Positions 6,075-43,978 of a stretch of 48,905 bases of DNA are shown here, piece after piece. The stretch lies in assembly GCA_032718475.1 (NCBI GenBank), contig JAUCBJ010008012.1, positions 1-48,905 of the forward strand, in the 5' to 3' direction. The translations under genes were made by a program, and so were the position numbers. Source of the stretch: Nemertoderma westbladi. Its lineage: Eukaryota; Animalia; Xenacoelomorpha. Position 1 is the first letter of the stretch; the number at the start of each line of letters is the position of its first letter. A model generated the notes under the pieces. That model was not told the DNA's origin. It made no database searches and was given only the letters and a program-made list of their open reading frames with translations.

Positions 6075-6290
6075 GTCAAGTACAATGCACACATCTCCAA
6101 CCAGACACTATATAACATTGGAGGTGTCTCATTGGTTCCCCCAAGCTTGACACTAGAACAAAATCGCCTCCGCTTTGCAGGACTTTGCTTTCGCCGTGAG
6201 GACCAGCCAGTGCATAATCTTGTACTTTGGCAGCCTCATGGAGTGAATAAGCATGGTGGACAGCCCATGACTTTCTTGAGACGCATCTTA

Positions 6291-6550
6291 CTACTACTAC
6301 TAGGATCGGCATGCTGCATTGCAGCTGCATTTTTAAGAATGCTGTGCCGGCTTGTCAACAAAATTGCACCGCCACAACTCCCTATCACCCATGACATTTG
6401 CTAGATCATCCACATCTTTAAGGCCAGTGTCCTTTAAGATGCGTCTCAAGAAAGTCATGGGCTGTCCACCATGCTTATTCACTCCATGAGGCTGCCAAAG
6501 TACAAGATTATGCACTGGCTGGTCCTCACGGCGAAAGCAATGTCCTGCAA
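6291..6550 (-). mobile_element. 260-bp 5'-truncated copy of the same RTE family inserted antisense into the host copy
   Basis: Reverse complement of host 6172-6290 plus 6563-6703; has its own (TAG)4 tail; 12-bp TSD AGACGCATCTTA at 6279-6290 and 6551-6562. Confidence 0.9.
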
Positions 6551-10197: not shown

Positions 10198-11151
10198 ATG
10201 CCACAGGATCGCTTTATATCGTCGCCCCGCTGCATCAAACCACAGAGTATTGGTCCGGCTTCCCCCTCCGCTGGCTACCCCAGCTCCTACTCCTACCCTG
10301 CTGTCCCCCCAACCCCTTACGGACTTCCCCAAAGCCCTAAATACATGGCCCTGCTGCCCTGCCCGCCAGACTTCAGCTGCTATTCACCCACCACTCCTCC
10401 AGCTAACCTCGGTTTCCCATTGAGCTCCTACAGCCGTAGCTACCCGGCCACCGCTGGCTTCCCTCTCCGCAACAACGGCTGGATCAACAGCGCTGCTAGA
10501 GAGATCGGCAAAGTCGAGAAACTCCTCGATACTTACGGCTTCATCCAGTGTAGCGAACGGGACTCACGACTTTTCTTCCATTTCTCCCAGTTCCTCGGTG
10601 GATCCATTCAGGAGTTGCGAATCGGCGATGATGTTGAGTTCCAAGAGGCTCCGGATCGCCGCAACGGTAAACCGATCGCAACGCAAATTATTAAACTCAA
10701 CATGAACGATTACGCTGTGCCGATGTCCCCGGCGGCCTACGACCCCAACTCGCTGACCTTTAACGCTCGCGGACAAGTTACCGTCGTCCCGCAGAAAAAA
10801 ACTCGCAGCAACTCAGTCTCAGATCAACAAGGTCGAGTTTCTTTCGAGCAGAATGGCGAGTGCTTCTTCCTTTCGTTTGCCAACGAGGATTTATTGGCGT
10901 CCACGGAGGTGAAGTCGGGGGATATGGTGAACTACGTGATCGTGACAGATCCGCGAACCGGGGCGTTGCGTGCGCGTGACGTGCGGCTGGACGGGGCAGC
11001 TGAGTTGGCCAGCTTGCCGCGGCATCAGGGCATCATATGTTCCCTCAAGGATAGTTTTGGGTTCATTGAGAGGGCCGACGTGGTTCGTGAGATTTTCTTT
11101 CATTTTTCTGAGTTGCGGTGCGACGCGCGGATCCTGCAGCTGGCAACCGAG
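10198..11151 (+). CDS. CSDE1: CSDE1 coding exon 1
   Basis: ATG at 10198; about 100-aa P/S/Y-rich N-terminus followed by CSDs; donor GTATGG at 11152. Confidence 0.9.
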
Positions 11152-18647: not shown

Positions 18648-19348
18648 CAAGGTCTAATAAATAACAGGTCAGGCAGCGAGCGGATTGCTAATTAGCGTGG
18701 GCCGATATGTTCCCTATTTATGGCTCCATTTCCTTAGAAACTTATTTTATGCTACTTTTGTTAGGTGGATATGATGACTAGGATTCATAGAAATGTAATA
18801 AAATGTCTTTCTGGAATTTTTATCTTATAGTTGCCAAGGTAACCGGGTGCAATGTTCAAACTTTGCGCGCCTGTATTTCAAGGCGATAATGGATTCTTCC
18901 CTTGAGATTTGGTTGGTGATTAAAGGAAATAAAAGTCTATCAAAATATTTTACATTTTCATTTGTTTACATTCCCGTTGCCATGGAAATAAGTATAATGA
19001 AAAATTTGAAAAATTGTCTACCAATTGAAAAAAAATTTAAATGTAAAATATTTTGATAGACTTTTATTCCCTTTACTTATATACCAAATCTCAAGAACAG
19101 AATCCCTTGTCGCCTTGAGTTACAGGCGCTCGAAATTTGAACTTTACACCCGGTTACCTTGGTAACTACAAGATAAAAATTCCAGAAAGACATTTTATTA
19201 CATTTCTATGAATCCTAATCATCATATCCACCTAACAAAAGTAGCATAAAATAAGTTTCTAAGGAAATGGAGCCATAAATAGGGAACATATCGGCCCACG
19301 CTAATTAGCAATCCGCTCGCTGCCTGACCTGTTATTTATTAGACCTTG
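18648..19348. mobile_element. 701-bp foldback MITE with arms of about 300 bp and a 9-bp TSD
   Basis: Termini CAAGGTCTAATAAATAACAGG...CCTGTTATTTATTAGACCTTG; outer 180 bp or so nearly perfect; TSD ATATACTCC at 18639-18647 and 19349-19357. Confidence 0.92.
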
Positions 19349-19974: not shown

Positions 19975-22033
19975 GGGTGGGTCAGTTAGATAGCATCTAA
20001 CTACATTATACAGGGGGGCAGTCAGATAGCAGCTCACTACGTTATACAGTGGGTCAGTTAGATAGCAGCTCACTACGTTATACTGTGGGTCAGTTAGATA
20101 GCAGCTCACTACGTTATACAGTGGGTCAGTTAGATAGCAGCTCACTACGTTATACTGTGGGTCAGTTAGATAGCAGCTCACTACGTTATACTGTGGGTCA
20201 GTTAGATAGCAGCTCACTACGTTATACAGTGGGTCAGTCAGATAGCAGCTCACTACGTTATACAGTGGGTCAGTTAGATAGCAGCTCACTACGTTATACA
20301 GTGGGTCAGTTAGATAGCAGCTCACTACGTTATACAGTGGGTCAGTCAGATAGCAGCTCACTACGTTATACAGTGGGTCAGTTAGATAGCAGCTCACTAC
20401 GTTATACTGTGGGTCAGTTAGATAGCAGCTCACTACGTTATACTGTGGGTCAGTTAGATAGCAGCTCACTACGTTATACAGTGGGTCAGTCAGATTGCAG
20501 CTCACTACTTTATACAGTGGGTCAGTTAGATAGCAGCTCACTACGTTATACTGTGGGTCAGTTAGATAGCAGCTCACTACGTTATACTGTGGGTCAGTTA
20601 GATAGCAGCTCACTACGTTATACAGTGGGTCAGTCAGATAGCAGCTCACTACGTTATAGAGTGGGTCAGTTAGATAGCAGCTCACTACGTTATACAGTGG
20701 GTCAGTCAGATTGCAGCTCACTACGTTATACAGTGGGTCAGTTAGATGGCAGCTCACTACGTTATACAGTGGGTCAGTCAGATAGCAGCTCACTACGTTA
20801 TACAGTGGGTCAGTCAGATTGCAGCCCACTACGTTATACTGTACAGTGGGTCAGTCAGATTGCAGCTCACTACGTTATACAGTGGGTCAGTCAGATTGCA
20901 GCTCACTACGTTATACAGTGGGTCAGTTAGATAGCAGCTGACTACGTTATACAGTGGGTCAGTTAGATAGCAGCTCACTACGTTATACAGTGGGTCAGTT
21001 AGATAGCAGCTCACTACGTTATACAGTGGGTCAGTTAGATAGCAGCTCACTACGTTATACAGTGGGTCAGTTAGATAGCAGCTCACTACGTTATACAGTG
21101 GGTCAGTCAGATAGCAGCTCACTACGTTATACAGTGGGTCAGTTAGATAGCAGCTCACTACGTTATACAGTGGGTCAGTCAGATTGCAGCTCACTACGTT
21201 ATAGAGTGGGTCAGTTAGATAGCAGCTCACTACGTTATACAGTGGGTCAGTCAGATAGCAGCTCACTACGTTATACAGTGGGTCAGTCAGATTGCAGCCC
21301 ACTACGTTATACAGTGGGTCAGTCAGATAGCAGCTCACTACGTTATACAGGGGGGCAGTCAGATAGCAGCTCACTACGTTATACAGTGGGTCAGTTAGAT
21401 AGCAGCTCACTACGTTATACAGTGGGTCAGTCAGATTGCAGCCCACTACGTTATACAGTGGGTCAGTCAGATTGCAGCTCACTACGTTATACAGTGGGTC
21501 AGTTAGATGGCAGCTCACTACGTTATACAGTGGGTCAGTCAGATTGCAGCTCACTACGTTATACAGTGGGTCAGTTAGATAGCAGCTCACTACGTTATAC
21601 AGTGGGTCAGTCAGATTGCAGCTCACTACGTTATACAGTGGGTCAGTTAGATGGCAGCTCACTACGTTATACAGTGGGTCAGTCAGATAGCAGCTCACTA
21701 CGTTATACAGTGGGTCAGTCAGATTGCAGCCCACTACGTTATACAGTGGGTCAGTCAGATTGCAGCTCACTACGTTATACAGTGGGTCAGTTAGATAGCA
21801 GCTCACTACGTTATACAGTGGGTCAGTCAGATTGCAGCTCACTACGTTATACAGTGGGTCAGTTAGATGGCAGCTCACTACGTTATACAGTGGGTCAGTC
21901 AGATAGCAGCTCACTACGTTATACAGTGGGTCAGTCAGATTGCAGCCCACTACGTTATACAGTGGGTCAGTCAGATTGCAGCTCACTACGTTATACAGTG
22001 GGTCAGTCAGATTGCAGCTCACTACGTTATACA
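19975..22033. repeat. 36-bp tandem minisatellite (CAGTGGGTCAGTYAGATAGCAGCTCACTACGTTATA), about 57 copies
   Basis: Head-to-tail units with no spacers; one short insertion near 20838 shifts the phase. Confidence 0.97.
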
Positions 22034-22188
22034 GTTATACGTTATACGTTATTTATGCAAATATAACAGCTGTTCTATTTACACTTACAGTACGTTTATT
22101 GTTTTGGTGAGAATAACAGGCCAATCTTCCCCTTAATTAATAATTTAACATTGAGGCGATATATTTTAATTCGCCGAGATGTATACTG

Positions 22189-22725
22189 TAGGGCATTATT
22201 GAAAAAAATCGTCACATTTTCCTAAAAATTTCAACTTAAAATTTTTGGGTAGACCTATATTTCTTTTGGAGGTTGTTCTATCATTATCGAAGTTATCTTA
22301 ACCGAACCCAAATCAATACAAAACCCAGTTGTATCGATTTGGGTTTACCTCATTTCAACTCAAATTTTCGATTTTTAAAAACAGGCAAAAACTACTGAGC
22401 ATTTACTGTTTTGTTTATTGGATATACATGTCTCATATAAATTTTATTTAGCTATTTTAATGCGAAAAGCCGAAAGTTATGCAGTTCGAATTTTCATGTC
22501 AAAAAAATGTGATATCTTCGTCCGCGCGTTACCATGATGATTTTTTATTAAAATATCTTATTTAGATATGTTGAAGAAGTATTTTTTGGTTTTTACCAAC
22601 GGCCTCATTATACCCCCATGCATCTTTGGTGACCACTTTCATATGCGAAAAGTATAATTATGTGCCGAAAATTTGAATGGTTTGTAAGAAAGATTTCCCT
22701 GCGTGACCTTTTCAATAATGCCCTG
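22189..22725. mobile_element. Tc1/mariner-type MITE
   Basis: TIRs AGGGCATTATTGAAAA and TTTTCAATAATGCCCT; right end reads CCCTG-TA; left terminus slightly decayed. Confidence 0.65.
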
Positions 22726-22750
22726 TACTACACAATCAATCTCCAATACT

Positions 22751-23954
22751 TGTACGCGCTTTTGAAGACCTTTAGCAGTTTAACCTGCCAAAATTTATGT
22801 CTTTTGGTTTATAAATAGACTTTAGAAGTTGACAAATATTTAATACCAATAAACACAACATTAGCAGAAGCCAGCCTAGTGCGCGTCCATTCACCCGCTG
22901 GATATACCCGGGAGACTGGATTCTGAGGGCTTAGATTATTATTGCAGTGTAAGCTTACTGTATTATTCGATTGATCGTTAATAAATAATTTCTGACTAAT
23001 ATTATTCACTTTCGGGAAATATTAACAGTTCCTTTAGGACGTGGCGCTCTATCTAGGTAAACAGAGATATGACTTATACTAATCACAACGGTAAGTCGGT
23101 AAGGCTTATGATTCACGTATGAGGCGCATTCTTTAGGAAATGCTTAGTTATCAGTCACAATCATGCACACTACCGGTAACACACAATACTGCTCACTAAT
23201 TTGCCGACCGTCAATGAATTTTATCATATATAAAGAGAACAGCAACGGACTCATGTAGTGCTTATCAAATAGCATTAAACTCACTACAAACCACGATAAT
23301 ATAAGTCGCAATCGCTATATGTAGCCTGTCTCTCTAACCTGTAGTGTATCAAGAAAATTGGGAAATTTGGGTTCTTTATAGATGTTCTCCAAATAATAAT
23401 ATTCAACCAAAACACAACAGTAAATAGCATTAAGACGGTAGGTTAAGATGGTAACAAGTAAGACTGGACCGATAACAGTTATACGCTCTATAATCTTAAG
23501 CCTACTAATGTTTCTTCTAAAGTCTGAAACGAATTGACTCTAGAGCCGGTGTTCCTGGCCTAGATAGAAACAACACAACAGTAACAAAAACACTCTCTGA
23601 CTCTAACACCGTTGCAGGTATCTTTTTACACAGAGAGGAATAGCTCTCATTGGCAGAACACCAGATTCCACAGGTTCCACGAATATCTAAATGCCGAACT
23701 ATCAGGATTTTTGCAGCCCTTGGCCAACACACAAAATGAGTCACTCCGCTCGGTTGCCCTGGTTGCATACTCTGCTGCTATAGCTCTGGTTGGCCGATAG
23801 AACATAGTAAAGAGCCCCTCGTATATCAAATCAGCCAATCAGCCGGTCGCTTTGCATCATTCGAGTTAGAGAGCTTTTTAGAGTATTCCAGCGCCTGGGG
23901 GGGAACTGGATTGCAAAGCAAAAGGGCCAGTTATATCCCACAGAAGCTTTTACA
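22751..23954 (+). mobile_element. 1.2-kb TGT...ACA element (solo-LTR-like), same family as the insertion at 36342-36700
   Basis: Starts TGTACGCGCTTTT and ends CACAGAAGCTTTTACA. First 200 bp and last 80 bp or so align with the reverse complement of 36342-36700. Flanks ATACT/ACAGT match only 3/5. Confidence 0.7.
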
Positions 23955-24091
23955 ACAGTACAGTATTCAGTAGTACCAAGGACAGCTCTACTACCGGTAG
24001 TCGAGCTGTCCTTGAGTAGTTGTAGTAGTAGTAACTATTCTATTGTTACAGGTATGTACAGTCAGACAGTATCGCCTATAATACCGATATA

Positions 24092-25011
24092 CACCATGAC
24101 CCGTAATATAGTGTCATTTTCTGATGACACGGACCCCCCCCCCCCCCCCCCCCCCCCCAATTTTTCTACAAATCTTTATCATATTGTTTGAAATTTGAAA
24201 CACCACTAGTTCAACTCACCGTGGTTGTTACCGTGAAGCCGGAATTTTCGATTTCGTCTTTAAATTTTATTTATAAGCGTTTTAAAAAAAGTGTCTTTTG
24301 CGAAATCGCACCCTCTGTATCATTGTCATTCTTCACATTAGTCTTATTTTTTCATATCAATAGAAAGCTTGCGTTGCAAGGATTCTAAATATGTAACAAT
24401 GTCTGAATTTCGTTGAGAATCAGCTGAGATATAGGCGATCAAAGATTGCAAGAATTATTGTTCGCTGAAGGCCATTTATTCTATTTAATAAATACACAAT
24501 ATTCTGGAACAATTTGTTTATGTATGATTAGCTACGCAATATAGATATTATATAGGCATACCGCTGTTGCCTACCAACTCATAAAATAAATAACACATTC
24601 TTCGAATTTCGTGTATTTAATAAATAGAATAAATGGCTTGCAGCGAACAATAATTCTTGCAATCTTTGAACGCCCATTTCTCAACTGTTTCTCAATGAAA
24701 TTCAGATATTGCTACATATTTGGAATCCTTGCAACGCAAGCTTTCTATTGATGTGAAAAAATTACGACTAAAGTGAAGAATGGCAATGATACAGAGGGTG
24801 CGATTTCGCAAAAGACACTTTTTTAAAACGCTTATAAATAAAATTTAAAGGCGAAATCTAAAATTCCGGCTTCATGGTAACAACCACGGTGAGTTGAACT
24901 AGTTGTGTTTCAAATTTCAAGCAATATGATAAAGATTTGAAGAAAAAAATTTTTTTGGGGGGGGGGGGGTCCGTGTCATCAGAAAATGACACTATATTAC
25001 GGGTCATGGTG
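24092..25011. mobile_element. 920-bp foldback MITE with arms of about 420 bp, CAC...GTG termini, in a TATA context
   Basis: CACCATGACCCGTAATATAGTGTCATTTTCTGATGACACGGAC(C)n is mirrored at the right end; TATA on both flanks (TA or TATA TSD; Tc1/mariner or Chapaev-like). Confidence 0.9.
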
Positions 25012-25550
25012 TATAGTAGTAATAATACCTCAGTATTCCTACTGTCCTACCGTATACGGGACAACTAGGGCTAGTCTACACTTTGACTTGGAATTACAGT
25101 ACATGTTTATTTTTTGGTTAGGGTTGGTTGGACGGGCCCAATCCCAATAAAAACTGCCATGTTGAGTTGACCAATGCTCTATAAATACCAGATAAGGGGG
25201 GATTTTCGACGCTATAAAAATAAATCACTCTCAAGGGGAAATTCGATGCAAAAAACAGCTGATTACTCCCAAAACTGTCCACTGTCTTTAGTTTATTGTT
25301 TGGGTTACAATAAGGTGCCACTGTCTAAAATACAGTGCCATAAGGCTAAAAACTGCATGGCCTCATGTAGTTTTAGGCCTCTTGGTTGTTACCGGTATGT
25401 TGTAGGCCTAGCCTAGTGTGTATCATTTTATTTCTAGTAGAATACATACCGGTAAACATCAAATTACTACAGTTGTACTGCTGAGTACCGTAATAGTTAC
25501 TTCCTGCATCCACGTTCATAAAGATTGCATCGATTTAGCGCAATGCTGCA

Positions 25551-25925
25551 ATGGGCCGGTATTACCACAGATGGCCGCGCGTACCATACATGGTGTCTGT
25601 CGGACTGGCTATGGGTGCATTAACCGCGTGTCATTTGGCACCAGAATCAACCATTTCATTCCTACAGATTCTCGGACCGGTAACCGGATTCGCTCAACAA
25701 ATTGTCGAAAATCGTGCGCTAATAGGCCTCACATTCCGTGCAATGTGGTTGGTCCACGCTGCTGAGTGTCTGCCTACATTTTATTTATCTCGTAAGAAGG
25801 GTTTGTCCATAGCAGCGACCGCCCATTGGTTGCTTAGTGTATCGATATTCGGTGTATTCTCTTTGTATTGGTTGATTCAATATCAACCTCCTTTGGCCCC
25901 GGGCCTTCGAAAGAAACAGTCGTAA
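25551..25925 (+). CDS. TMEM254: TMEM254-like small membrane protein (DUF4499 family), 124 aa, intronless
   Basis: Three hydrophobic segments. LGP..G, WLVHAAE (compare WLIHVGE), KKGL and W...V.IFG..SL..LI.Y match the recalled family pattern and length. Ends in KKQS. Confidence 0.8.
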   Translation: MGRYYHRWPRVPYMVSVGLAMGALTACHLAPESTISFLQILGPVTGFAQQIVENRALIGLTFRAMWLVHAAECLPTFYLSRKKGLSIAATAHWLLSVSIFGVFSLYWLIQYQPPLAPGLRKKQS

Positions 25926-26111
25926 TTGGCCTGGCCTACTGTTTTAATTAATATCTCTCCAGTGGGGATTCGACTCCAATAACAACTGATTACCGTCAAT
26001 AATGAAATTAATATGTACTATAGACTGGTTTATTGTTTTGGTTAGAATAGCGTACCAAAGTAACGTTCACCTTTACCTTTGGGCCTGATGCTGTAACCGA
26101 ATAGATTAATA

Positions 26112-26400
26112 CTCTGGGAGTCCCGAATAGACGGGGCGACACGGCTGTTAATTTTTGAAATATAATCCACCCACAATTCTCTTATTCCAGACACCCCATT
26201 TTTCTAAAAAAATTAGTACATTTTTTATTATGAGTAAATAACGTTTCTTCTCATAATAATTGAGAGTTGAAAGTGAAAGAATACAAAAACCGTGTACCGA
26301 GTATACCACCGGTAGCCATAGGTACTCATGTACGCCTATACTGTATGTTAAGTAAGTATATTAAATTTTCCACCCACCCCGTTTATTCGGGACTCCAGAG
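26112..26400. mobile_element. pogo/Tigger-like MITE
   Basis: TIRs CTCTGG(G)AGTCCCGAATA(G/A)ACGGGG flanked by TA on both sides. Confidence 0.8.
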
Positions 26401-27787
26401 TAAATATGATAGATCTATGCATAATTAATTTATATTTTTACAGTAATAATTATAAATTAATTATAATAGTACCCGTAATGATTTATTAATTCAATTATAT
26501 TTATTTTCTTCCCCTTTGCCATTTTCTTATTCTATTGGTGCAATCAATATCAATATAATCCAAAATTATTGTACTTGGCCCTCTTTAACCACTCGCTGCA
26601 ATGAAAGGGTAGCGTATATTAACCATGAACCATCACGGCCACAATGATTAATCATACAGCCTAGCTACTAATTTAGGTAGGACAATTACACCCATAGAGA
26701 AATGCGACCGGTATATTTATAATTTATTATAGGAGTTATATTGGTGGTTTCATATTATTATAACTTTTTGTCAACTTTTTGCTGGGCACAGCTTTGCAAA
26801 TTCGGCAATGATATCCAGGTGGGATCGATCTGGATTTTGAGATGATTTTCAGGTCTATCTTTTACCTGAGCCTCTAGCGGAATGGTTAGAGCGTCAGTTC
26901 GATCCCACCTGGATAATTTTGTTGACAACACTAGGGGTTGAACCAGCATTGTAGAGAAAAGTTGAAGGCTATTACCTATTGGCCATCGTGAGAAGCGTTA
27001 TAACAGGACAGCTTCAATCACAAGACAGGGGGGGAAACTCGACGCAAATTCCAATCGACCCGTTTTTGGCGACTAATAGTTGCACCCAGTCGGCAGGTCG
27101 CGGCCTATCACAAGCCTTCTTGTCTAATAATTAACTATAACTCATCACGTTTTAGGCAATATGGTTGGTGTAATGCATATTGTACGGCTAGATAATAATT
27201 TATTAATAAAGTACTAAATGTACTTTATCACTGTTCAGTAATACTATTTATATGATAATAATTAATTATATTATTCTTATATATGTTATACAGGTATAAA
27301 GGAGACTATTCGACAGTCGCCTTTATACACGACCCAAGAGGTGGTTGGAATAGTCGAATTGGTCGACAAAGTCGGCTCAACCTATAGTCTACATATAAAG
27401 TTTTGCGACTTTCTGCGACTCTCCATACCATATGCCGTATTGAATATTGTAGGCTATATGTAGGCCTGCTGTCTATGATATATGTAATCCGACCACCGCA
27501 CCACTTGCTAGTTACTCTCAGTAGGAAAAGTGACGTGAGGTCAGACTTTTTTTTATACAGTATATATAGAGAAAGTATAGACCTGAATGACATGTGGGAG
27601 TTAGATGTTATTTGAAATAGGTTATGTGTAATTGTGTACTGTTGTACATTATTGCCAATTATACTGCTCTTTCAACTATTTACGATATCAATATAAATTA
27701 AAGAGACATGTGTTTCTAACCACACAATTGTCTTAAGAATTATTGGAAAAGACTTAAATGTTTCGGATAAATAAAAGACTGAAACGA

Positions 27788-27979
27788 TTTAACAAATTAA
27801 GGGAAAGGGGCAGGTTACAGTGGCTCGTTTTTCTAACCAAAACAATAAACGAAACTCAATGTAATAGCTTAAAGTTAAATGTTTAGGTTAAATGAAAGAC
27901 TGGAGCATTTTAACAAATTAAGGGAAAGGAGCAGGTTACACCGGCTCATTTTTCTAATCAAAACAATAAACGAAACTCA
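27788..27979. repeat. Two tandem copies (120-bp period) of a dispersed repeat TTAAGGGAAAGGAGCAGGTTACA...AACCAAAACAATAAACG
   Basis: Same motif at about 33617, 44100 and 47144, and inverted at about 9579, 22093, 25290 and 26028. Confidence 0.8.
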
Positions 27980-28039
27980 GGGGGAGATGTTACCCCAGAA
28001 CTTTTCAAAAATTGAAAAATTTTTGAAATTTTTTTTTAT

Positions 28040-28380
28040 TAATTCTAAATCAGAATTTAACGCAGATTTCAGAAATCGAAATCCTAACATCACATCAGAA
28101 GCTTAAGTTTTCTGTTTGTCTGTCTATTGGTCTGTTTTTCTGTTTGTCAACAAATTATGGATATAAAAATGTACACCACCTAACTAAAATTATTGCTACA
28201 TGGGTTTTTGTGGTGACGGATTTCATTTCCGGGGTCAGTTTTAAAATTTGACAATCTATTTTTTCTGTCCGTTTGTCCGTCTGTGGGTCTGTCTGTCAAA
28301 AACATAACGAAGCACGCTACGTAACTAAATTTTTCACTCTGGGGGTTTTTAAGGTCGGTGATTTCATTTCTGGTGTTATC
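28040..28380. mobile_element. Possible Helentron-associated (DINE-1/HINE-like) element fragment
   Basis: (CTGT/CCGT)n microsatellite blocks each followed by ACTAAA...GGGTTTTT..GGT..GATTTCATTTC, present twice. Confidence 0.45.
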
Positions 28381-28764
28381 TCAAATATAATATAATAATA
28401 AAATATATAATAAAATAATAAATAATATAATAAAGGCGATATAATAAAATAATATTGTAAAGATTTACAGCAATCGAGATCGAGGACATTCCACGAACAG
28501 ATCCGAAGAGGATCCGAGTGTTAGGTTTCCCTTATTTGGGACCAACTTATTCGTTCTCATTTTGTGTGGGGCAGCCTGTTCTATGTCAATGAGGATGGGA
28601 TGAATCCTATGCATTTTAAAGAAACCATGGTCTATTCCACTTACGTGATTCTTGGTCTTAAGTCTCATTGCATCGGTAAAATATAATACAGCATCTTAGA
28701 ACATATCAATAATTTAAATTACATTATAAAGTAGGACCTACAATACCTACTGCGTATAGGGTAA

Positions 28765-30194
28765 TTATTCAATAACATCAGCAGGATCTACAGTGCATGG
28801 AATAACCGGTGATCCTTTAACTTCATCAGAAGCACCATTAGCTACATCTACATCACTGAAATGTTTCATTTCAACAGCACCTTGAGAGCCATCAACTACT
28901 GGAATGACTTCCTTCCTGTTAGTTTTACTTCTTTTTATATAGATTACCAGAAAGATAATACAAGCTACAGCAATAACCGCAGACAAAACTATTGAAGAAA
29001 TTTCCGATGCATATGTAAGATGGTTGTATTTTACGAGGGCCATGGTGGAGCTATCTTCATTTATAGTGGTATGTTCTGTAAGAATATCATTTGGAGGTTT
29101 TCTAACATTATTGTGTCTTAATCTAACCGTTATTCTCTCACTTGTAGACACGACACCATGGTTACTCAAACTGCTGCTAACTTCATACCAATATGTTTCA
29201 CTTCTACCGCCTTCAACAACGACAGTTAGTTTCGATTGGCGACCAACTTCAAGGGATTCTCCATTAACAGTTGTGTTGCTCAACCAGGTGATGTTATTGT
29301 CAGGCCAACCCGCATTGAATTTGGCTTCTAACACAATAGTATCGAGATCAACTTCTAGAAGACCCTTAATTTCTTCTCCTGTGTCTTCTGTAATTATTCT
29401 AAGATTGGTTGCTAGGTAACGTATTTCCAAGGTAACATCACATGTTTTAATTCCATTAGACGCAATATTCCTAGCCTTGCATGTAAAAGTTTGATGATCG
29501 AATGAATGTGCTCACTAATTAATTTTGGCAAATTAAATGAAATTATTTTTACTGAATTGTGGGATTCATGCTGTATATCCTGTGTAATTTGCTTTGTTCC
29601 ATTGAACCAATTAAACATTCCGTTGTTAGGGTAACCAGTTTCGGTTGGAAAGGGAACCCAATAATTTGCTCTGCATTGAATTACGTCACTAAAGTTCCGG
29701 TTAACAACGATATTGCATTGTGAATGGAAGGTGTGTGTGTTACCATTGCATCCGCATTCTAGAACAGAAGACCTCGTCTCGCACTGGGGAATACGAATTT
29801 CTGAAACTTCAGTCCACCATTCCCAATAACAGCTGTAAGAAAAGTCACCGCTGTATTCGTATTGGTTTATTAGTTTGTTAACAGTAAATATAGCTGTGTG
29901 CTCCGCTCTGTTTATTACAACAGACCCTCTATCTAACTTATTCACATTTGCATTAAACTTTAAATCCACGGCATCCCTAAATCTCAGGATTGTTTTCCAT
30001 CCGTTGCTATCCATAAGTAAGGCAACATCAACATCATTATTAAATTTTATTTCCCTATAAAAACAACTTAATTTTATTTTATCCCCTTTTACTAAACAAT
30101 CTCGATCAACTGGCTCAATAACATTCAACCCAAATCCTGGTAGGCCCATTCCTACAATCATACTAATAATTATATCGTATAAGTGTGGTAGCAT
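28765..30194 (-). pseudogene. Ig-superfamily type I membrane protein, copy A; intronless; 1-bp frameshift near 29510 (476 aa if repaired)
   Basis: Signal-like N-terminus; Ig-type motifs GDKIKLSC, YSGDFSYSC, IQCRA..FNWF..FTCKARN; TM IVLSAVIAVACIIFLVIYI followed by KRSK. GTGCTCAC here vs GTGGCTCAC in copy B breaks the frame. Confidence 0.8.
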
Positions 30195-31424
30195 GTTAAT
30201 CGTGTAAATTATACTGCAGCAGTTGAACAACAACTCATTTTTTATTCTTTAATTAGAATTTGTGCATCTCCAGAGTTGAACTTTAATTTACTGATGTCAA
30301 CGTTTTGACCTCGCTGTTTAAAAGTATAAATAAGCTGTTTGTTTATTTTATGAATCCTGCAGTCCATTCAATGCGTTATCCATGGTCTGTAGTTGAGAGT
30401 TGCTTCCTATTGTAAAAAAGAAGTAAGTACCGGCTCAAAGTTACATCGATTCCAAAATGTACAAGTAGTACATCATTATTAGTGTATTGGTTCTCCACGA
30501 TCAACGCTGTGGAAATTTAAATAATAATAAATTGTATCGGTAATGGAGTTTATTAAAATGTGCAAAATTAAATAGCAGTAAATAAGTATGTGTCCATTAA
30601 TAACTGTAATTATGTACAGTGACCTTTATATTGATCCCTCACAGATAAATTATCAGTTTTACCTGTTATATTACAGATCTACAGACTTATTTAATTTAGT
30701 CAATATAACGGTAACATGATAAGTTTATTTTTAAAGTTTATTTAAGTTTACTTTTATAAGTATAGTCAATTACTGTGTATGCCAAAAGGCAAATTTCCAA
30801 GACTTGTTAATAATAATAGCGTACATTTAAACCGTACTTTGGCAACTTGGTGTTAGGAGTAAACCAACCCTACCCGCACCGTACTAGCTAGCACCAAACA
30901 TAGACTAAACTCTAAACTAAACTCTTCATCGCTTAGTACCTTACCGCAGCATACTACAACAATCGCCTTCCTGTCTGCGCGCGAGCTAGGGGAAGATCTC
31001 CTCTTTGCTGGGGGTTAGAGCGCGTAAGAAAAGGGTGAAGAGGGGGAAGTAAAAGGGGTATGGATCGATAAATAGCATCCAATACGACGCCTCCATTTAC
31101 GACCATTTAATACACATACAGCTGTCTATAACTTGACAAGTGGTAATACTACTGAATAGTTGCTTAACTTACACACACACACCCACATACATACCCACCC
31201 CACACCTAACACACACACTATCACCCCCACCCTCTTACCAGCATGCTTACTTATACGTACCCTCCCACCCACCCCAGCACACCTAATTAACCGCACCCCC
31301 CCCCCCCCCCCCCACCCCTACACACCTATTTAACCGGAAACACCCACCTAAGCAAACAAGTACACCTTACCCGTACCCACCCACCCCTATTTCAGTCAAG
31401 TTACCGCTGCAAACTGGGAGTACA

Positions 31425-32400
31425 CGTAAGTAGAGTTTCATTTGCAATAATGGGATATGCTGACGACTTGACTTGATCCAACATATAACAAGACCTGCAA
31501 GACCTCTTAGTGCTCTGCCAAGATTACTTCGTTAAACACAACTCAACGATCAATATGAAGAAATCTCATTTTATATCTATAGACACCAATGGTAAACCTG
31601 TAACTGGCGAAGTACTCCTGCTCGCAGGTAAAACTCTGGAATCAACGTTTAAATGTACGTAGATGGGCTTACCAATCCCTCAAACTACATACAATATGAG
31701 AAAGCACTTTGAACAAAGAATCTGGTCTGCAATAAATAAGATTAACATGAGAGGACTTGCGGTAGACAATATACCTCTCCATATAACATCCAAGAAGTGG
31801 AGGACTATTTGCCTACCACAGATACTATAGGGCTCACCAAATCTAATGCCAAAGGATATAAAACAACTTGTAACAAACTGTAGGAAGGGAATGCGGAATC
31901 TAATACGATGTGGCAACTATATATCCAGTTCTACACTACACAGATTATTCAAAACGATTGACCTTGAAACTGAGATTAGTCTGCGACTCATGCAACTAAT
32001 ATACCGGCTGTTTAACAATCCGAATCAAAGAGCATCATTCTTTTTTATACGGCTACTTACTATGTTCCAAAGTGGAATACGCAGCCCAACTATTTTCGAT
32101 ACAATACAATCAACTGGCATGGAAAACTGGTATCCCTAGCCTAAACGCTTTGGTGACTAGCGAATATAGTACGAAACACATTGCAAAACACCATCGCAAG
32201 ACCAACCTCTCTCAAACTCAAACACCAAAGGAAGCCTTTGAACTGTTATATGTCCAGTCGATACTGGAGAACTTTGTAGCGCCGACCCACGAGCGAATAT
32301 GTGTCATGAAAGATTATTTTGGGCTTGAACAGCGCCCACGAAACCGCCATAAAGGAGGTAGCCGATTTCGCCGCTCTATAGCAACTCATCGCCCACTACG
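31425..32400 (+). mobile_element. Degenerate non-LTR retrotransposon reverse transcriptase fragment
   Basis: IMGYADDLT (YADD at 31456-31467), then LQDLLVLCQDYF...INMKKSH and a decayed F.Y.G.P motif; several stops and frameshifts. Confidence 0.7.
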
Positions 32401-32639
32401 TGGCTCGCCCCCAAACAATAGGGTGGGGAATACATTGGCACTGGGACTATGCTTGTTGTACATACTACATAACCCGCCAGCCACCGTTTGGTTAATTAAT
32501 AACATGATTAACTTGTTTATATTTAATTTTGTACACAATTGATTTTATGTCAGTCATTGGTGCGGAGTACTAGTAGGCCTTATGCCGGATTGAATATATA
32601 TATTACATTTTGACCGTTAACTTTGAAAGTCCTCAGCAA

Positions 32640-33392
32640 GTCTCTGACCAGATGAGCATAAGCTCAAAGGATGGAATGCCTGAGTATGTGAACGACGTCT
32701 GTTACCTGGGGGATCATGGATCCGGAAGTCAGGAGAGAACCTTCGAATACGTAATGGAAAGGCATGAGCAGCCTTGAATAGGCTTTCCAGGATTAGGAAG
32801 TCACATAGAATTCATCGGAAACTAAATGTCCGATTATTTAGAGCAGCAGCAGTTCCAGTACTCTCTATGGGAGTACATGCTGGGCTCTAACTGCTGGGGA
32901 CACCAAATCTCTGGATGGCACATTCACAAGAATGCTACGCCGAGTTCATTGTGTCAAGTACAATGTACACATATCCAACCAGACACTATACAACATTGGA
33001 GATGTCTTGTTGGTTCCCCCAAGCTTGACACTAGAACATAGCCGCCTCCGCTTTGTATGTCATTGTTTTCCCCTTGAGGACCAGCCTTTGCACAATCTTT
33101 TGCTTTGCAGCCCCATGGAGAAAATAGGCATGGTGGACAGGCCATGACTTTCGTGAGACACCTCCTAAAGGAAAATATGACCTTGAAGATGCGGATAATC
33201 TCGCGAAAGTTATGGGGGATAGGGAGTTGTGGCAGTGCAACTTTGTTGATAAGTCGACATAGCATTCCTAATGCACGCTGCATTGGGCTTGCCAATTGTG
33301 GATTGCATGGTGGTGACAAAATGTTTTTGTTAAGCCGGCATAGCATCACAATGTGCAGTTTCAATGCAGCAGACCGATTATACTGTAGTAGT
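32640..33392 (+). mobile_element. Older RTE-clade LINE 3' fragment, same family as 5749-6703
   Basis: Collinear with 5752-6703 once that copy's two insertions are removed; YVNDVCYLG (compare F.YLG); ends GTAGTAGTA. Confidence 0.85.
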
Positions 33393-33527
33393 ACCTTTAA
33401 GATTCCACAGCAAACATCCTCGAGGCAATCAAGCCGTACCAGGAATTTGCAAAAGCGGAAAGTAGGCACTCTGGGTGAGTACAAAGCAAAATCCAAAGAC
33501 CCACTGTTCAAAACAAAGACGTAAAGC

Positions 33528-33602
33528 CGCGTTAAGTCCCAAAGAGCGTTAAGTCCCAAAGAGCGTTAGGTCCCAAAGAGCGTTAGGTCCCAAAGAGCGT
33601 TA
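33528..33602. repeat. 17-bp tandem repeat GCGTTARGTCCCAAAGA, about 4.4 copies
   Basis: Read directly. Confidence 0.9.
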
Positions 33603-34137
33603 GATCGCATTGCCAATTAAAGGAGCAGGTTAGTAAAGGAGCAGGTTACAAAGGCGTGTTGGGGGAACCAAAACAATAAACGAAAGTTAACACATGTTAC
33701 AAGATTATGTAGGTTACTTAATTGGGTCTTTGTTTTTTACTCACCCGGCAGTTTTCGCCAAAACGTTATCTAAGTCTAGTTTTATTTTACACCATAAAGT
33801 TTTTTTGATAATTGTTTCCTATAAAGTAATGCAAAGTATTTACATTCTAGAACATTCGAGAATTATTGTAAATATTGCAATTAATTGCGTTTTTATGGGA
33901 TAAATATTGAGATAATTAGGGCAGAACTCTTTTTTGTAATATCTTAAACATTATCACCGCACAAAAACGCCCTTTAACGACCACACCAGATCTTTAAAAC
34001 ATTACCTATATTCGAATGCGAGAATAAAGGTTATTATCCCAGCCTAGAGGCCAAGCTAGGTAACAAGGCAAAAAGGACTAGGAATCATTAGAAGTGTCCT
34101 ATTGGGTGTTATTTTTAGATCCTTCCCTCTTTTCTTA

Positions 34138-35889
34138 AGGCCCATTTTATACTCGGCCGTACGAGAAGGTCGTGAGGCGGACCCGTGAGGTTAACGTACG
34201 GCCTCATCCATGGTCGTACGGTGCCAACCGGAAACTGCCTGCACAGTTGTTTTGCGACCGTATACGGCCACCGTATGCCGCTTACCGTACCGGTGAACGT
34301 ACGACGGAGATGCCATAAAATTTAACGCCATACTGGATCGAATATAATAGTTGCCGTACGGCACTGTGTGTGTAAACCATTTTGCATTGTGAAGGCCTTC
34401 TGTATAAATATAAATCCTTATGTAAAACAACAGTCCGAAATACTAGTGTATGGTGGATGGCCCATGAGTATCACACAAAAATACAAATTAAATTAAAAAA
34501 CAAATTAAAATAAAATAAAAAAACAAATAAAATTAAATTAAAAAACAAATAAAATTAAATTAAAAAACAAATAAAATTAAATTAAAAACAAATAAAATTA
34601 AATTAAAAAACAAATAAAATTAAATTAAAAAAACATATTAAATTAAATTAAAAAACAAATTAAATTAAATTAAAAAACAAATTAAATTAAATTAAAAAAC
34701 AAATAAAATTAAATTAAAAAACAAATAAAGTTAAATTAAAAAACAAATAAAATTAAATTAAAAAACAATTAAATTAAAAAACAAATAAAATTAAATTAAA
34801 AAACAAATAAAATTAAATTAAAAAACAAATATAACTAAATTAAAAAACAAATATAACTAAATTAAAAAACAAATAAAATTAAATTAAAAAACAAATAAAA
34901 TTAAATTTAAAAACAAATAAAATTAAATTAAAAAACAAATAAAATTAAATTAAAAATCTAATAAAATTAAATTAAAAAATGTAAAAAATTTATTTTAAGA
35001 AATTTCATAAAAAAAAAAAAATTAATAAATAAATAAATTTATTAATTATAAAAAAAATAATGAAGAAAAAATAAGAAAAAAATAATAAAAACAAAAGAAT
35101 ATAATTTCATAAAAAAAAAATTTTTTTGCTAAAAATTCACTTATAAAAAATACTGTTTGTTGCACATCAGTGTCAATCCGTGGAAATGTATATCATTTTA
35201 CCAGCCTATCAGTATCACTTCCAATATCCGAAATTGGAAGTGAAACTGATGGGCTGGTAAAATGATACCGGTATACACTTGAGCTAGTAAATAAATAATG
35301 ATCAGTATCACTTCAGCAAATAAATCATGTATTGGGTATTTTGGCTTAGCTGGGTGATATAAAGCGAGAATAATAATAAATAAACACAATAAATATTTCT
35401 ATGGATTGATGTGCCACCAACAAACAGTATTTTTTTATTTATTATTTTTTCTTCATTTTTTATATTATTTAATTAATTAATGAATTATTTATTATTATGA
35501 ATTTTTAAAATAAATTTTTTAAAATTTGTTTATTTAATTTTTTTTTGATTTTTTAATTTAATTTGTATTTTTGTGTGATACTCGTGGGCCACCATACACT
35601 AGTATTTCCGACAGTTGTTTTACATAAAGAATATGCCTTCACAATGCAAAAAGGTGTGCACAGTGACGTACGGCAACCGGATCGAATATAATTTTTTTTC
35701 TATTCGATTCGGCCGTCGTATGGCGTTAAATTTTATAGCATCCCCGTCGTACGTTCGCCGGTACGGTAAGCATCCGATGCCTTACGGTGGCCGTATACGC
35801 GGCCGTAAAACAACTGCAGATTCTGTACTGCACTCACGGCCACCTTACGCCGTTATGCGGCTGTCGTACGGCCGAGTACAAATGGGCCT
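34138..35889. mobile_element. 1.75-kb foldback element (PIF/Harbinger-like termini) ending 56 bp downstream of the Ig copy B stop
   Basis: Termini AGGCCCATTT..TACTCGGCCGTACGA and TCGTACGGCCGAGTAC..AAATGGGCCT with TA flanks; arms stay homologous inward to about 35190 and 35395; CGTACG-rich subterminal repeats. Confidence 0.8.
34478..34980. repeat. 22-bp A-rich minisatellite (AAAAAACAAATAAAATTAAATT), about 23 copies
   Basis: Read directly; lies in the left arm of the foldback element. Confidence 0.93.
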
Positions 35890-35945
35890 TACTAGCATTA
35901 CTGCAATTCCTACAGTATAGTCACCGAAATTCGTTGTGAAATTAC

Positions 35946-37737
35946 TTATATAGTAACAACATCAGCAGGATCTACAGTGCATGGAATAACCGGTGATCCT
36001 TTAACTTCATCAGAAGCACCATTAGCTACATCTACATCACTGAAATGTTTCATTTCAACAGCACCTTGAGAGCCATCAACTACTGCAATGACTTCCTTCC
36101 TGTGAGTTTTCCTTCTTTTTATATAGATTACCAGAAAGATAATACAAGCTACAGCAATAACCGCAGACAAAACTATTGAAGAAATTTCCGATGCATATGT
36201 AAGATGGTTGTATTTTACGAGGGCCATGGTGGAGCTATCTTCATTTATAGTGGTATGTTCTGTAAGAATATCATTTGGAGGTTTTCTAACATTATTGTCT
36301 CTTAATCTAACCGCTATTCTCTTACTTGTAGACACGACACCTGTAAAAGCTTCTGTGTGATGTAACTGGCCCTTCGCCCCGCAACCCAGTTTTTCCCCCA
36401 TACGCTAAAATACTCTGAAACCTACTGTAAAGGTTTTTCTGGGATATGACTGATTTGTTTTCTTTGCTAACCAGTTCCCCCCTCCAAGGCACAGTAGGCT
36501 TGACCGCAAATAAATTTAAGCCCACGAATCCAGTCTCCCGGTGTTATAAACGGGTCATTTGGACGCGCATGGACTGGCTTCGGCTAATGTTTTTGGTTTG
36601 TTTTGTATTAAATCTTATCATCTTACAAAAGGCAGATTATCAATAAAGACATATAAATTTCGGCAGGTTAAACTGCTGAAGGTCTATAAAAGCGCGTACA
36701 ACACCATGGTTACTCAAACTGCTGCTAACTTCATACCAATATGTTTCACTTCTACCGCTTTCAACAATGACAGTTAGTTTCGATTGGCGACCAACTTCAA
36801 GGGATTCTCCATTAACAGTTGTGTTGCTCAACCAGGTGATGTTATTGTCAGGCCAACCCGCATTGAATTTGGCTTCTAACACAATAGTATCGAGATCAAC
36901 TTCTAGAAGACCCTTAATTTCTTCTCCTGTGTCTTCTGTAATTATTCTAAGTTTGTTTGCTGGGTAACTTATTTCCAAGGTAACATCACATGTTTTAATT
37001 CCATTAGACGCAATATTCCTAGCCTTGCATGTAAAAGTTTGATGATCGAATGAATGTGGCTCACTAATTAATTTTGGCAAATTAAATGATATTATTTGAA
37101 CTGAATTGTGGGATTCATGCTGTATATCCTGTGTAATTTGATTTGTTCGATTGAACCAATTAAACATTCCGTTGTTAGGGTAACCAGTTTCGGTTGGAAA
37201 GGGAACCCAATATTTTGCTCTGCATTGAATTACGTCACTAAAGTTCCGGTTGACAACGATATTGCATTGTGAATGGAAGGTGTGTGTGTTACCATTGCAT
37301 CCGCATTCTAGAACAGAAGACCTCGTATCGCACTGGGGAATACGAATTTCTGAAACTTCAGTCCACCATTCCCAATAACAACTGTAAGAAAAGTCACCGC
37401 TGTATTCGTATTGGTTTATTAGTTGGTTAACAGTAAATGTAGCTGTGTGCTCTGCTCTGTTTATTACAACAGACCCTCTATCATACACGTTGTTATTGGT
37501 AGTAAAGTCTAAACTTACAACATCAAAGTGCCTTAGTATTGTTTTCCAACCGTTAGCATATATAAGGAGGGCTATATCTACATCATTATTCAACTTTATT
37601 TCACTGTACGAACAAGATAACTGAAGTTTATCTCCTCTAAGTAAACAGTTTCTATCATCTGGTTGCACCATCTTCAAGCATAAAACTGTTGAGCTAATAT
37701 GAATAAGTCCCAAAGCTATGTATAATAATATTGGCAT
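35946..37737 (-). CDS. Ig-superfamily type I membrane protein, copy B: join(37737..36705,36340..35946) = 475 aa if the insertion is spliced; unspliced ORF 36640-37737 = 365 aa with no TM
   Basis: Signal peptide MPILLYIALGLIHISSTVLC; about three Ig-like domains; TM followed by KRRK; tail of about 57 aa. No lesion other than the insertion. Confidence 0.75.
36342..36700 (-). mobile_element. 359-bp TGT...ACA solo-LTR-like insertion with 5-bp TSD
   Basis: TSD ACACC at 36337-36341 and 36701-36705; copy A has the empty site; homologous to both ends of 22751-23954. Confidence 0.88.
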
Positions 37738-38261
37738 AATTAATTATTGAATTAACAATCAATTTGGATTTACATTCGTTTGTTATTGAGAAAACATATC
37801 CATGATTATTAATAATTCAGCAAAAATTAAAGAATTTAAATTAAAGAGAAATCGTATACCGATATAACGTATACCGATACTTCACATATATATCGGAATA
37901 GAAAGGCAACTTTGTGATGAACAAAACATTTCAAGGCCTAAAATACGCACTAAATTAATTAGTCTATGTACATTATGCAGTTCTTCTGAGTGACATAAAG
38001 CATATACAGTATATTTTTTAATAATTACTGATAGGCTATTACCAATTTTAGGAGCAGTCAATCACACTTATCGTACTTTTAATATTGGTCAAATAATTAA
38101 ACAATCCTTTATGAAAACCCTTTTCTTTATATAATATCGTTTCATTGCGTGCCAAAGGGCAAACTCCCAAAGTAGGTGATTTACAAGAGTTGATTGTTTT
38201 CTGAAATTGGCAATAGGTTGTAGGGGACGACTAAATTATTTAAGTAGGCCTACTGTAATAT

Positions 38262-38535
38262 GCCATCAAAAAGTGTCTCAAAAACACAATTGGGTGCTCA
38301 CTGTGCCTGTTCTCTCCATGAGGCCGCCAAATCAGAAGATTGTGCACTGGATTGTCCTCACCGTAATGTCCTGCAAAGGCACAGGCGGCTGTGTTCAAAT
38401 TTCAACCTTGGGGAGACCACTGAGACTCCTCCAGAGATGCTGATTTGGGTCTGCTTGGAGTAGTGTCGTGCATTGTACAGTCCCAATAAACCCGGTGTAG
38501 CGTTCTTGTCAATGTGCTATCAAGGGATTTGGTGA
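38262..38535 (-). mobile_element. Highly diverged RTE-family fragment
   Basis: Reverse complement aligns with 5915-6290 (e.g. GTGAGGACAATCCAGTGCACAATCTT, GCCTCATGGAG). Confidence 0.7.
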
Positions 38536-41470: not shown

Positions 41471-42501
41471 TACCTACCTACCTAACTATCTACCTTCCCT
41501 AACTGCATGGCTCACAATACTGCTATACACAATACAGGTCAGCCCCCAGCCGGTACCAATACCTGAATACTGCAATACAGCAATACCAGAATACAGCAAT
41601 ATTTATCTGATTTCAGGCTTGTTCTGCTAGTTACCAGAGTACCGGTAGTCTGGTAGTCTGCTGCTCTGTCAGTCCACAGCCTGTTTTTAATTGTTTGAAA
41701 TTTTAATATGCATATGTCTGGCTGTACTGTCTGACTGTACTAAAACTACTGAACTACAGTCTGACAGTACTAACAGACTAAGGCCTACTATCGGACTGTC
41801 TGACTATTAAATTTTACAAATTTTTATTCAATGTTATTCAGTTATTGGCCTAATAATAATAATATATTTATATCGCGCCTATAGGGCCTACGCATTGTTC
41901 TAGACGTTCTAGGCCTAGCGGTACTCTGGTACTGCAGTACTGGTCTGCTGGCAGCTGGCTGGCTGGTACAACTTTACTACATACCGGTCAGCCGGTACTA
42001 GCTCTGAAACGCTTAGGCCTATAAAATTTTTTAAGAAAATTCGAAAATTCTTCTGGCTTCCCTCGCTCCATGTAGACACTGGACATCGACTGATCGACGG
42101 TGAGTTGAACTAGCCTAATACAGTAATAGGCTGATAGGCCTACTGTAATATTATTCAGTTATTGATAAAGATTTGTAGAAAACTGCATTCAGTTTCAGGC
42201 ATAGATTAGGCTGTTCGGATGTTCAGCTGTTAGCAGGTTAGGTAGTGAAATTACCGTCAGACTATACCCAGACTGCCAGCTGGCCAGAACCCAGACAGCC
42301 AGATACCTGCATACTGGCATACTCAGATACTGGCTGACTGGCATACACCTGTACACTGCTGCACTGACAGACTGCTGGACTGATAGACCAGTCAGCCAGT
42401 ATGACTACAACCCAATCTGCCAACAGGCTGACAGGCAGCCGTACCAAGTGCCAAGCTGTCCACTGTCTGACTGTCAAGGCCAAGGGTTCTGGACTGGGAC
42501 G

Positions 42502-43290
42502 GGTGCTTAGATCGTGGTTTTTCCAGTTAACATTATTCCATTTTGCTGTTTTGTCTGTTTGTATAAAACACGTGATGTGGTCTGGTGGTTGGAGATGGAG
42601 AAACCTGCTAGGGGAAGCAACTAAGCAGCAACCAATCTGCAATCACGTTAATCCTGTTTAACACACTGACACAGAGTTAATCAGTTAATGAGTCAATGGA
42701 ATATTGCTAACTTCAAAAAGTTCAGGTTACCATTATTCCAAAGTAATCGTACAGTAATTAAGCTGCTAGTGTTTGTCAGTTTACAGTTAGTACTGTAGTA
42801 ATCGAGTAAGAGTAAGCCATATAATATTATATAGTACAATACCAGGCTGCCAGGCATAACAAATGCAAGAAAAATAAAAAATACTGTATTATAAGTGGAT
42901 TATAGGATTAGTTTAATCACAATGACAGAATGATGTACTGTAAATGAAATATTTATAGTTAAGTCTGGTTCAGTGGTTTGTCTGGTAAGTCTGACGCCTG
43001 ACTGCTTTCCTTTCGGTATAACTTGTATAATGAAACAGACAAGGCTGCAAACTGGCAAAGGGTGAAGGGAGTGTGATAATAATGAATACAGATCGAGATC
43101 CTGAGATGTGGAATAATGGTAACCTGAACTTTTTTATGTTAGCAATATTCCATTCCCATTGACTCTGTCAGTCTGTGTTAAACAGGATTAACGTGATTGG
43201 TTGCTGTTTAGCAGTAGTTTTCTCCAACCACATTACTTGTTTTATACAAAATGGAATAATGTTAACTGGAAAAGCCACGATCTAAGCACC
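42502..43290. mobile_element. Old foldback MITE with GG...CC termini
   Basis: GGTGCTTAGATCGTGG.TTTTCCAGTTAACATTATTCCATTTTG mirrored at 43247-43290; arms 42502-42740 and 43108-43290; TSD decayed. Confidence 0.8.
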
Positions 43291-43978
43291 AGTGGGTACT
43301 GGGGTAGGTACCGTTACTTGGTTACCGGTACTGTTCTCAATGCTGTTCAAGTCAACTATTGCTGTATTGGTATCTGGTCAACTATCAGGTTAAGCAAGCC
43401 ACCCATTTGGGTAATATATTTCATGTCTTTATTTCGTGCCTTTGTGTAGAGAATTAGTTGATTATTTATAACAATGGATTTCTAAATATTCCCGGTTTCA
43501 GTTCGGTTGAACTTAATGATATTTTGGTAAATATTTGTTCGCGTTAGACATTCGTGTTAATTAACTTAACTGTTTATCATTAACTATCTGTTGTAAATTT
43601 ATTTTGTTCTTATAGGTCCTTATTACGATTTGTGCTGTAATTATTCTTATGTATTGTGTACTATGCTGTTTAGTTGATTTATTTTTCTTTTTGTTCTGTT
43701 ATCACATATGTAGTCTGTACCCGGCTTGCCGGTGTATGATAATAACAATAATAATAATTTGAGAGTGGTTAAACTTGAGGGAAACTATTTCAGTTGTTAA
43801 AGTTGTCATTTCTGCATTTGATGTTATTTAGTTTAGACCTAGTTAAAGTCTGAAAGTGGTTATATTTAACTTGTCACAGTGATTTTAGTTAGTTGACAGA
43901 GTTTTTTTAAACAAAAATAGTTGACTTTCAACATAAATCTAACTAAATTCCGCAAGCTGAAAGCAGGATCCCTCTGAG

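Follow-up and report, generated by a model that had tools for sequence, protein, structure and literature searches.

An LTR-like insertion with GT…AG borders in an immunoglobulin-family receptor gene of Nemertoderma westbladi: probably a young disruption, unlikely to be an intron

The window analysed here, the whole 48,905-nucleotide stretch of Nemertoderma westbladi contig JAUCBJ010008012.1 (assembly GCA_032718475.1), carries two tandem paralogues of an immunoglobulin (Ig) receptor gene, called paralog A and gene B below, together with a CSDE1/Unr gene, a TMEM254-family open reading frame and a variety of repeats; the features on which the argument turns are collected in Table 1. Gene B, which starts at an ATG at 37737 on the minus strand, is broken after codon 344 by a 359-nt insert with TG…CA termini, and its strand reads AACCAT GGTGT TGTACG…TTTTACA GGTGT CGTG across the two junctions. 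Paralog A has a single GGTGT at the corresponding place, the empty site that a first-pass annotation of this DNA had reported. A 4-bp reading, in which GGTG is duplicated and the element begins with TTGT, suits the letters of gene B equally well and has no consequence. The insertion itself far exceeds anything expected by chance; the fit of its borders to GT…AG does not.

Table 1. Positions in the window of the receptor genes, the element family and the splice signals compared.
Feature	Positions	Strand	Basis
CSDE1 intron 1, donor GAG/GTATGG	11152-12289	+	inferred from open frame
CSDE1 intron 2, donor ATG/GTGAGT	12702-14738	+	inferred from open frame
Second family member (copy 2), 1204 nt, TG…CA, longest open frame 86 codons	22751-23954	-	sequence comparison
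12 bases complementary to X1 contig letters just outside the element end; candidate self-primer and transcript start	23472-23483	-	by eye, inferred
Paralog A, empty site (GGTGT at 29157-29153), one 1-bp gap near 29510	28765-30194	-	sequence comparison
Gene B 3' coding part, from the end of Ig domain 3 through stalk and transmembrane helix to the tail	35946-36340	-	ORF, excision translation, Pfam
Target-site duplication copy 2, GGTGT; first G finishes candidate acceptor CAG	36337-36341	-	sequence
Three tandem AGs ending at 36353, 36350 and 36341, in frame with candidate donor (479, 478 and 475 aa)	36341-36355	-	sequence
Insert, 359 nt, TG…CA, internally deleted LTR-like family member	36342-36700	likely + (antisense to gene B)	orientation inferred
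Terminal piece of 149 nt with two diverged copies of family end motif; U3 likely starts here	36342-36490	+	80% and 77% to 23876-23954
Terminal piece, 210 nt, likely R/U5 end, ATTAAA at 36607-36612	36491-36700	+	77% to 22750-22961
Competing //GURAG donor TTT/GTAAGA, first intron base 36626, 13 nt past the stop	36621-36629	-	sequence scan
Premature stop met if insert is retained	36640-36642	-	ORF
Target-site duplication copy 1, GGTGT; gives candidate donor G/GT at 36705/36704	36701-36705	-	sequence
Gene B 5' coding part, 344 codons + 1 nt, with signal-like N-terminus and three Ig-like domains	36705-37737	-	ORF

Two coding outcomes can be written for gene B. Excision of 36704-36341 (364 nt, phase 1) leaves 475 codons with no internal stop, as the first-pass annotation had proposed, and retention gives a 365-aa open frame (37737-36640) whose final 21 residues come from the duplication and the element. 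The earlier statement that gene B has no other lesion is literally true, with no further frameshift or stop, and is to be expected of a young insertion. By sequence the product is assigned to the Ig-superfamily type I membrane proteins: the Pfam models ig, Ig_3 and I-set give weak matches under cut-off, and the nearest ESM Atlas clusters are nearly all of the Ig family, with scores of 0.90-0.92. No relative at E ≤ 0.001 was found among 801 candidates, and comparison with 1.84 billion representatives returned a single weak match of 37 residues. Single-sequence AlphaFold models of the receptor forms reach mean pLDDT values of 35.8 and 32.6, too low for use, and the insert is placed instead by the pattern GWP…ITW, YWYEV, STSKRIAVRL, according to which it would sit between the F and G strands of Ig domain 3. 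The retained product would then lack both the membrane anchor and the last beta-strand of that domain, such that the length of 365 aa given earlier for an ectodomain holds and the product would probably not be a clean soluble one. An internal CCTTTACAG (36425), earlier named as a possible alternative acceptor, is in frame, but its product would be 350 aa.

The tandem receptor paralogues (28765-30194 and 35946-37737) differ strongly in the first domain and are 98% identical over the remainder. Codons 25-90 have a dS of about 1.1 and a dN/dS of 0.26, as befits old paralogues at the 5' end, whereas codons 91-470 are 2% apart, with 19 nonsynonymous and 5 synonymous differences and a dN/dS of 1.04, a ratio obtained with no outgroup and hence attributable to the pair and not to one copy. 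Codons 91-470 have been homogenised recently and constraint is not visible in them, a pattern pointing to recent gene conversion that would have spared the N-terminal domain. The sole lesion of paralog A is a 1-bp gap near 29510 within a CC run, and the TAG found there belongs to the shifted frame. This gap may be an assembly error; if it is real, the receptor could perhaps be made here from gene B alone.

The insert belongs to a family with a second, longer member in the window (copy 2), whose flanks, ATACT and ACAGT, agree at 3 of 5 bases and form no perfect duplication. Resemblance between the two is confined to the ends of copy 2, with 77% identity over 217 nt and 80% over 80 nt. Further members were seen among contigs from a sequencing run, X1, which is of guessed kind and matches 0.14 of words. 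One of these contigs is identical to the insert over 36491-36701 (211 nt) and then continues into other letters; another has a single difference in the 149-nt terminal piece and continues for 219 other letters. The contigs depart from the insert on either side of 36490/36491, and none of the eight bridges the joint. Together with the ends-only similarity to copy 2, this indicates that the insert is an internally deleted copy and not a whole solo LTR, its 359 nt comparing with 1204 nt in copy 2, so that a full U3-R-U5 length has not been kept. The description of the insertion as solo-LTR-like in the first-pass annotation thus holds for the duplication, the LTR-like ends and the multi-copy family, and fails for the wholeness of the LTR. 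On copy 2 lie 51 X1 contigs, 17 of them at 99% identity or above, and one stops precisely at 23954; the terminus is thereby confirmed, and the family is seen to be multi-copy with subfamilies. Joints of X1 contigs on copy 2 were considered as splices and set aside, as unidentified letters lie between them and they look like diverged subfamily segments. The interval 23008-23073 has by far the highest summed contig depth of copy 2 (378 per bin), and may be common to many family variants or to another repeat.

Several observations bear on the class and direction of the element. Gene B carries the TG…CA termini and the 4-6 bp duplication expected of a solo LTR, in the form of GGTGT on both sides. 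Directly outside the 36342 end, the 10 letters that one X1 contig (depth 8) has there include a purine-rich stretch, as read by eye; past the 36701 end, three X1 contigs of different variants have common letters with an agreement of 0.83; and in both window copies an ATTAAA lies 94 nt from the 36701-side end, on the strand opposite gene B. The outside letters suggest that an internal region would follow the 36701 end, with a sequence like a primer-binding site (PBS) there and one like a polypurine tract (PPT) at the 36342 end. Taken together, the purine-rich stretch, the common outside letters and the placement of ATTAAA make the LTR most likely antisense to gene B, contrary to the sense insertion supposed earlier.

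We are fairly confident that the element is of the LTR class. Neither a reverse transcriptase nor an integrase was seen in the window, Pfam searches of 20 further window frames gave no transposon protein above cut-off, Rfam over 22000-38500 had nothing on the element, and a two-LTR parent was found neither in the window nor in metagenome and viral contigs (0 pattern matches). Internal deletion that keeps both ends is typical of non-autonomous DNA elements, and the insert is deleted in just this manner; the pair of end-like units at one of its termini recalls subterminal repeats, and TGTACG is preceded by a T both in the two window copies and in the three X1 contigs extending to that end, which would allow a TTGT terminus and a duplication of 4 bp. 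Identity as a non-autonomous DNA transposon whose terminal repeats are very short, its outside letters coming from nesting in another repeat, is nevertheless unlikely: the terminal inverted repeat is short and imperfect (TGTA plus a broken extension), the PPT-like and PBS-like letters stand on the expected sides, the 12-base complement described below falls inside the long copy, and the T of the contigs would be explained if it were the first base of a shared internal stretch. An end-joining hairpin was also considered and rejected, since shuffled sequences fold as well as the strand that surrounds the insert (z +1.19).

The common letters past the 36701 end do not begin with TGG, and the first 12 of them, read by eye, would pair with 23483-23472 of copy 2 on the element strand, a match for which 3e-4 would be expected by chance per strand, in a comparison prompted by Tf1 and made after viewing the data. 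In this the family may resemble the Tf1/sushi elements, whose PBS is complementary to the first ~11 nt of the element RNA and whose reverse transcriptase and integrase fall in the chromovirus clade, and the 5-bp duplication in gene B recalls Tj1. The Tf1/sushi self-priming elements are described, in the available parts of four papers, from fungi, plants and vertebrates (PMC4600332, PMC6317226, PMC7175516, PMC5443660); the host here is, by contrast, a divergent non-vertebrate animal, the R-U5 region would by implication measure ~730 nt, and no pol gene was seen. A limited literature search, over partial texts, found no invertebrate self-priming element. Whether the family primes itself in the manner of Tf1 in a non-vertebrate animal we judge to be evenly balanced; were it true, this priming mode would extend past fungi, plants and vertebrates. 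In the X1 contigs the ~20 letters that follow the 12-base complement resemble window plus-strand 22933-22957, a possible U5-leader stem. X1 cover is absent from 23470-23865 of copy 2, starting near the proposed transcript start, an absence that we do not count as evidence.

The GT…AG borders are readily accounted for by the ends of the element and its target. A TG…CA element with a 5-bp duplication yields GT…AG in four registers, and the five-base sites at which any such element would do so amount to 43 of 1441 (2.98%) in the coding stretch of paralog A, 99 of 2812 (3.5%) in the CSDE1 exons and 1439 of 48901 (2.9%) across the window, with equal frequency for both element orientations. The register in gene B, with a target beginning GGT, makes up 22 of the 43 working sites in paralog A; a target that starts with GGT and an element that ends in CA give these borders by chance. 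The first-pass annotation had called the intron frame-perfect, yet removal of an element with one duplication copy always restores the frame, and the contingent part is the GT…AG alone, at about 3% per site. Insertions bordered in this way must occur in repeat-rich genomes. Whatever the TG…CA element, a duplication of 4-6 bp leaves it with GT…AG borders at some 3% of sites, and the pattern by itself is no evidence of an intron.

Host splice signals were taken from the CSDE1/Unr gene (10198-16198, plus strand), which has GC-rich exons and only two inferred introns, the second with a 32-bp tandem array at 12716-13940. The two introns represent the sole donor and acceptor combination, within the ranges tried, that gives an open frame aligning to a homologue, and the resulting spliced frame has 942 codons and 40% identity over 887 columns; the best matches of the product, to amphioxus and a chiton, are at 36%, with fishes at 30-34%. 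The comparison therefore comprises n=2 host introns, both inferred and both of CSDE1. Two major donor classes, AG//GU and //GURAG, are described in the portion of PMC11732430 at hand, and both CSDE1 donors suit them, whereas the candidate donor of gene B, ATG/GTGTTG, suits neither: G is present at -1, with T at -2 and TTG at +4 to +6. Against the U1 motif it scores 3.5 of 11, compared with 6 and 8.5 for the CSDE1 donors. Among the 114 GT sites of the gene B pre-mRNA it ranks 87th by U1 letter match, which together with its standing outside both classes bears out the earlier caveat that this donor is weak, and 14th by duplex energy (-4.7 kcal/mol). In the gene B register the +5 position is the first base of the element, which is always T, so that a G at +5 can never come from this family and its capacity as the intron generator proposed earlier is limited.

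Competing signals are present on the gene strand. The GT 5 nt within the insert that had been noted as a rival donor does exist, at 36699, and donors fitting the major classes stand at 37518, 37321, 37064, 36626 and 36421. From 36626, joined to any of the six acceptors tested, the 365-aa product is unchanged, the premature stop being kept, and from 37064 to the candidate acceptor an in-frame membrane protein of 355 aa would result, 120 residues short. The candidate acceptor, TTTTACAG, has 9 pyrimidines in 17, the same as one CSDE1 acceptor, and is preceded by AGs 9 and 12 nt to its 5' side, whereas neither CSDE1 acceptor has an AG within 20 nt; the accessible text of PMC9284458 reports that AGs shortly before an acceptor are depleted in humans. 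The end letters of the element are the same in copy 2, and are thus a family trait with no adaptation in gene B. Neither AATAAA nor ATTAAA occurs on the gene strand of the insert. Overall the candidate acceptor appears fair and the candidate donor weak.

The insertion is very young, as the near-identity of the insert to X1 family contigs shows (1 of 360 bases different). Over 35700-38300 there are eight X1 contigs, all within 36342-36701, and they have no bearing on the expression or splicing of gene B. In a rough model that assumes 1 indel per 10 substitutions, a dead frame of 1428 nt would stay free of lesions with P of about 0.6 at 0.3% divergence, and because the insertion is so young the intactness of gene B is uninformative.

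We consider it probable that the insert is what a likely LTR retrotransposon left behind after a recent insertion and an internal deletion, and that it lies antisense to gene B and disrupts it. An integrase would have put the element at a GGTGT target in an exon of gene B, recombination between the LTRs would have left one LTR, and some 850 nt of the middle, including the putative promoter and start site, would have been lost before or after insertion. Transcripts of gene B, if made, would read through the remnant, whose gene strand is free of poly(A) hexamers, and are predicted to retain the insert for the most part or to splice from 36626, translation ending at 36640 either way; exact splicing of 36705^36340 would be a minor product at most. 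Against disruption stand the -1G and the 14th rank of the candidate donor by duplex energy, and an element that has shrunk while diverging so little would also be consistent with selection for an intron that is tolerated. A true intron gain, in which the spliceosome efficiently removes 36704-36341 at sites that the duplicated target supplies in whole or in part and the 475-aa receptor is made, has in its favour the exact GT…AG geometry and open 475-codon frame, a donor with -1G, an acceptor reading TTTTACAG, two upstream AGs in frame, slippage to which would still yield a full receptor (478 or 479 aa), and an insert with no poly(A) hexamer on its gene strand; the route is moreover documented for LTR elements in the consulted part of PMC12130899. 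Its best argument is that gene B is otherwise intact and paralog A frameshifted, if the gap is real, but intactness says little at the age of this insertion. With a donor outside both major classes and a +5 fixed as T, a stronger donor at 36626 closer to the acceptor, a geometry that chance provides at about 3% of sites, and a copy 2 that lacks that geometry and is not found in a coding frame, we regard such a gain as improbable.

Leaky splicing, with a membrane form and a secreted 365-aa form both at useful levels, seems to us just as improbable. Both products can be written from the sequence, a weak donor facing a competing internal donor would yield a mixture, and exonic transposons are partly spliced in maize Ds and Drosophila 412 (PMC4256211, as far as its sampled text goes); however, the insert would fall between the last two strands of Ig domain 3 and leave the short form incomplete, and so recent an insertion has had too little time to evolve a role in regulation. 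The fullest version of intron birth, an antisense self-priming LTR that inserted at a GGT target, shed the middle carrying its promoter and is spliced exactly or at the +9 and +12 acceptors so as to rescue the sole intact receptor copy, is no less doubtful. What probability remains beyond disruption, exact splicing and a mixture of two forms goes to other outcomes, such as the use of upstream donors.

Introners provide the closest published comparison. In the portions of Gozashti et al. 2025 (PMC12130899) available to us, LTR elements account for ~12% of confidently classified introners; solo LTRs are functional introns in Panicum virgatum (switchgrass); the Copia family Papaver fam1 is listed with gt:6 ag:6, 'co-opt both' and a TSD of 4; Polarella fam5 comprises 1622 copies that are solo LTRs with a 5-bp TSD; and Styela fam3, an LTR family of a tunicate, has mostly non-canonical sites. 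The first-pass annotation had implied novelty in that introners are mostly DNA transposons, and these published LTR and solo-LTR introners with 5-bp duplications remove it, such that even a spliced gene B would bring no new mechanism. The insert shares with them an LTR-derived sequence in an exon and splice sites co-opted from the target duplication: GT comes from the duplication, AG from the A of the element and the G of the duplication, 475 codons are open, and paralog A supplies the empty site. It differs in number and kind of evidence, as introners in that study are families of at least four intron copies in different paralogy groups with consistent splice sites, drawn from annotated introns, whereas gene B offers one exonic copy of an internally deleted element whose splicing is predicted, and of the two family copies in the window one is exonic with GT…AG and the other is neither.

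Single exonic insertions offer a second comparison. Those spliced in maize Ds (Wessler 1987; Giroux 1994) and in Drosophila 412 at vermilion (Fridell 1990), as cited in the part of PMC4256211 seen, resemble gene B in that the ends of the element and the target duplication offer splice sites, exact removal being possible and rare; they were shown at the RNA level, in contrast to gene B, where splicing is a prediction and the donor weak. The insert would act as an introner if spliced, and cannot at present be filed as one; the insertion is real and of an ordinary kind, and its status as an intron unlikely. Were the junction used, an animal would offer an intron gained in one event that can be dated, its empty site lying 7 kb away, and with it a way to ask how a new intron copes with a weak donor and how that donor is improved.

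The remainder of the window holds one further gene candidate and several kinds of repeat. A TMEM254-family frame of 124 aa lies at 25551-25925 (plus strand) and is apparently intronless. At 19977-22035 a 36-bp unit is repeated 57 times with 94% match and is open in two frames of about 300-400 codons each. Long inverted arms, foldback or MITE-like, occur at 24079-25024, 6173-6704, 18648-19348, 34280-35771 and 42499-43293, and between the arms at 34280-35771, which finish near the stop codon of gene B, there is a 22-bp AT-rich array. A 465-codon frame at 122-1519 (minus strand) has a weak match to DUF4218, a domain which we take to be typical of CACTA/EnSpm-like transposase fragments, and is adjoined by an exact 434-bp tandem duplication at 1375-2236. 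A 38-bp inverted repeat with a 1-nt spacer lies at 35190-35267, to which Rfam gives sub-threshold matches to miRNA families only.
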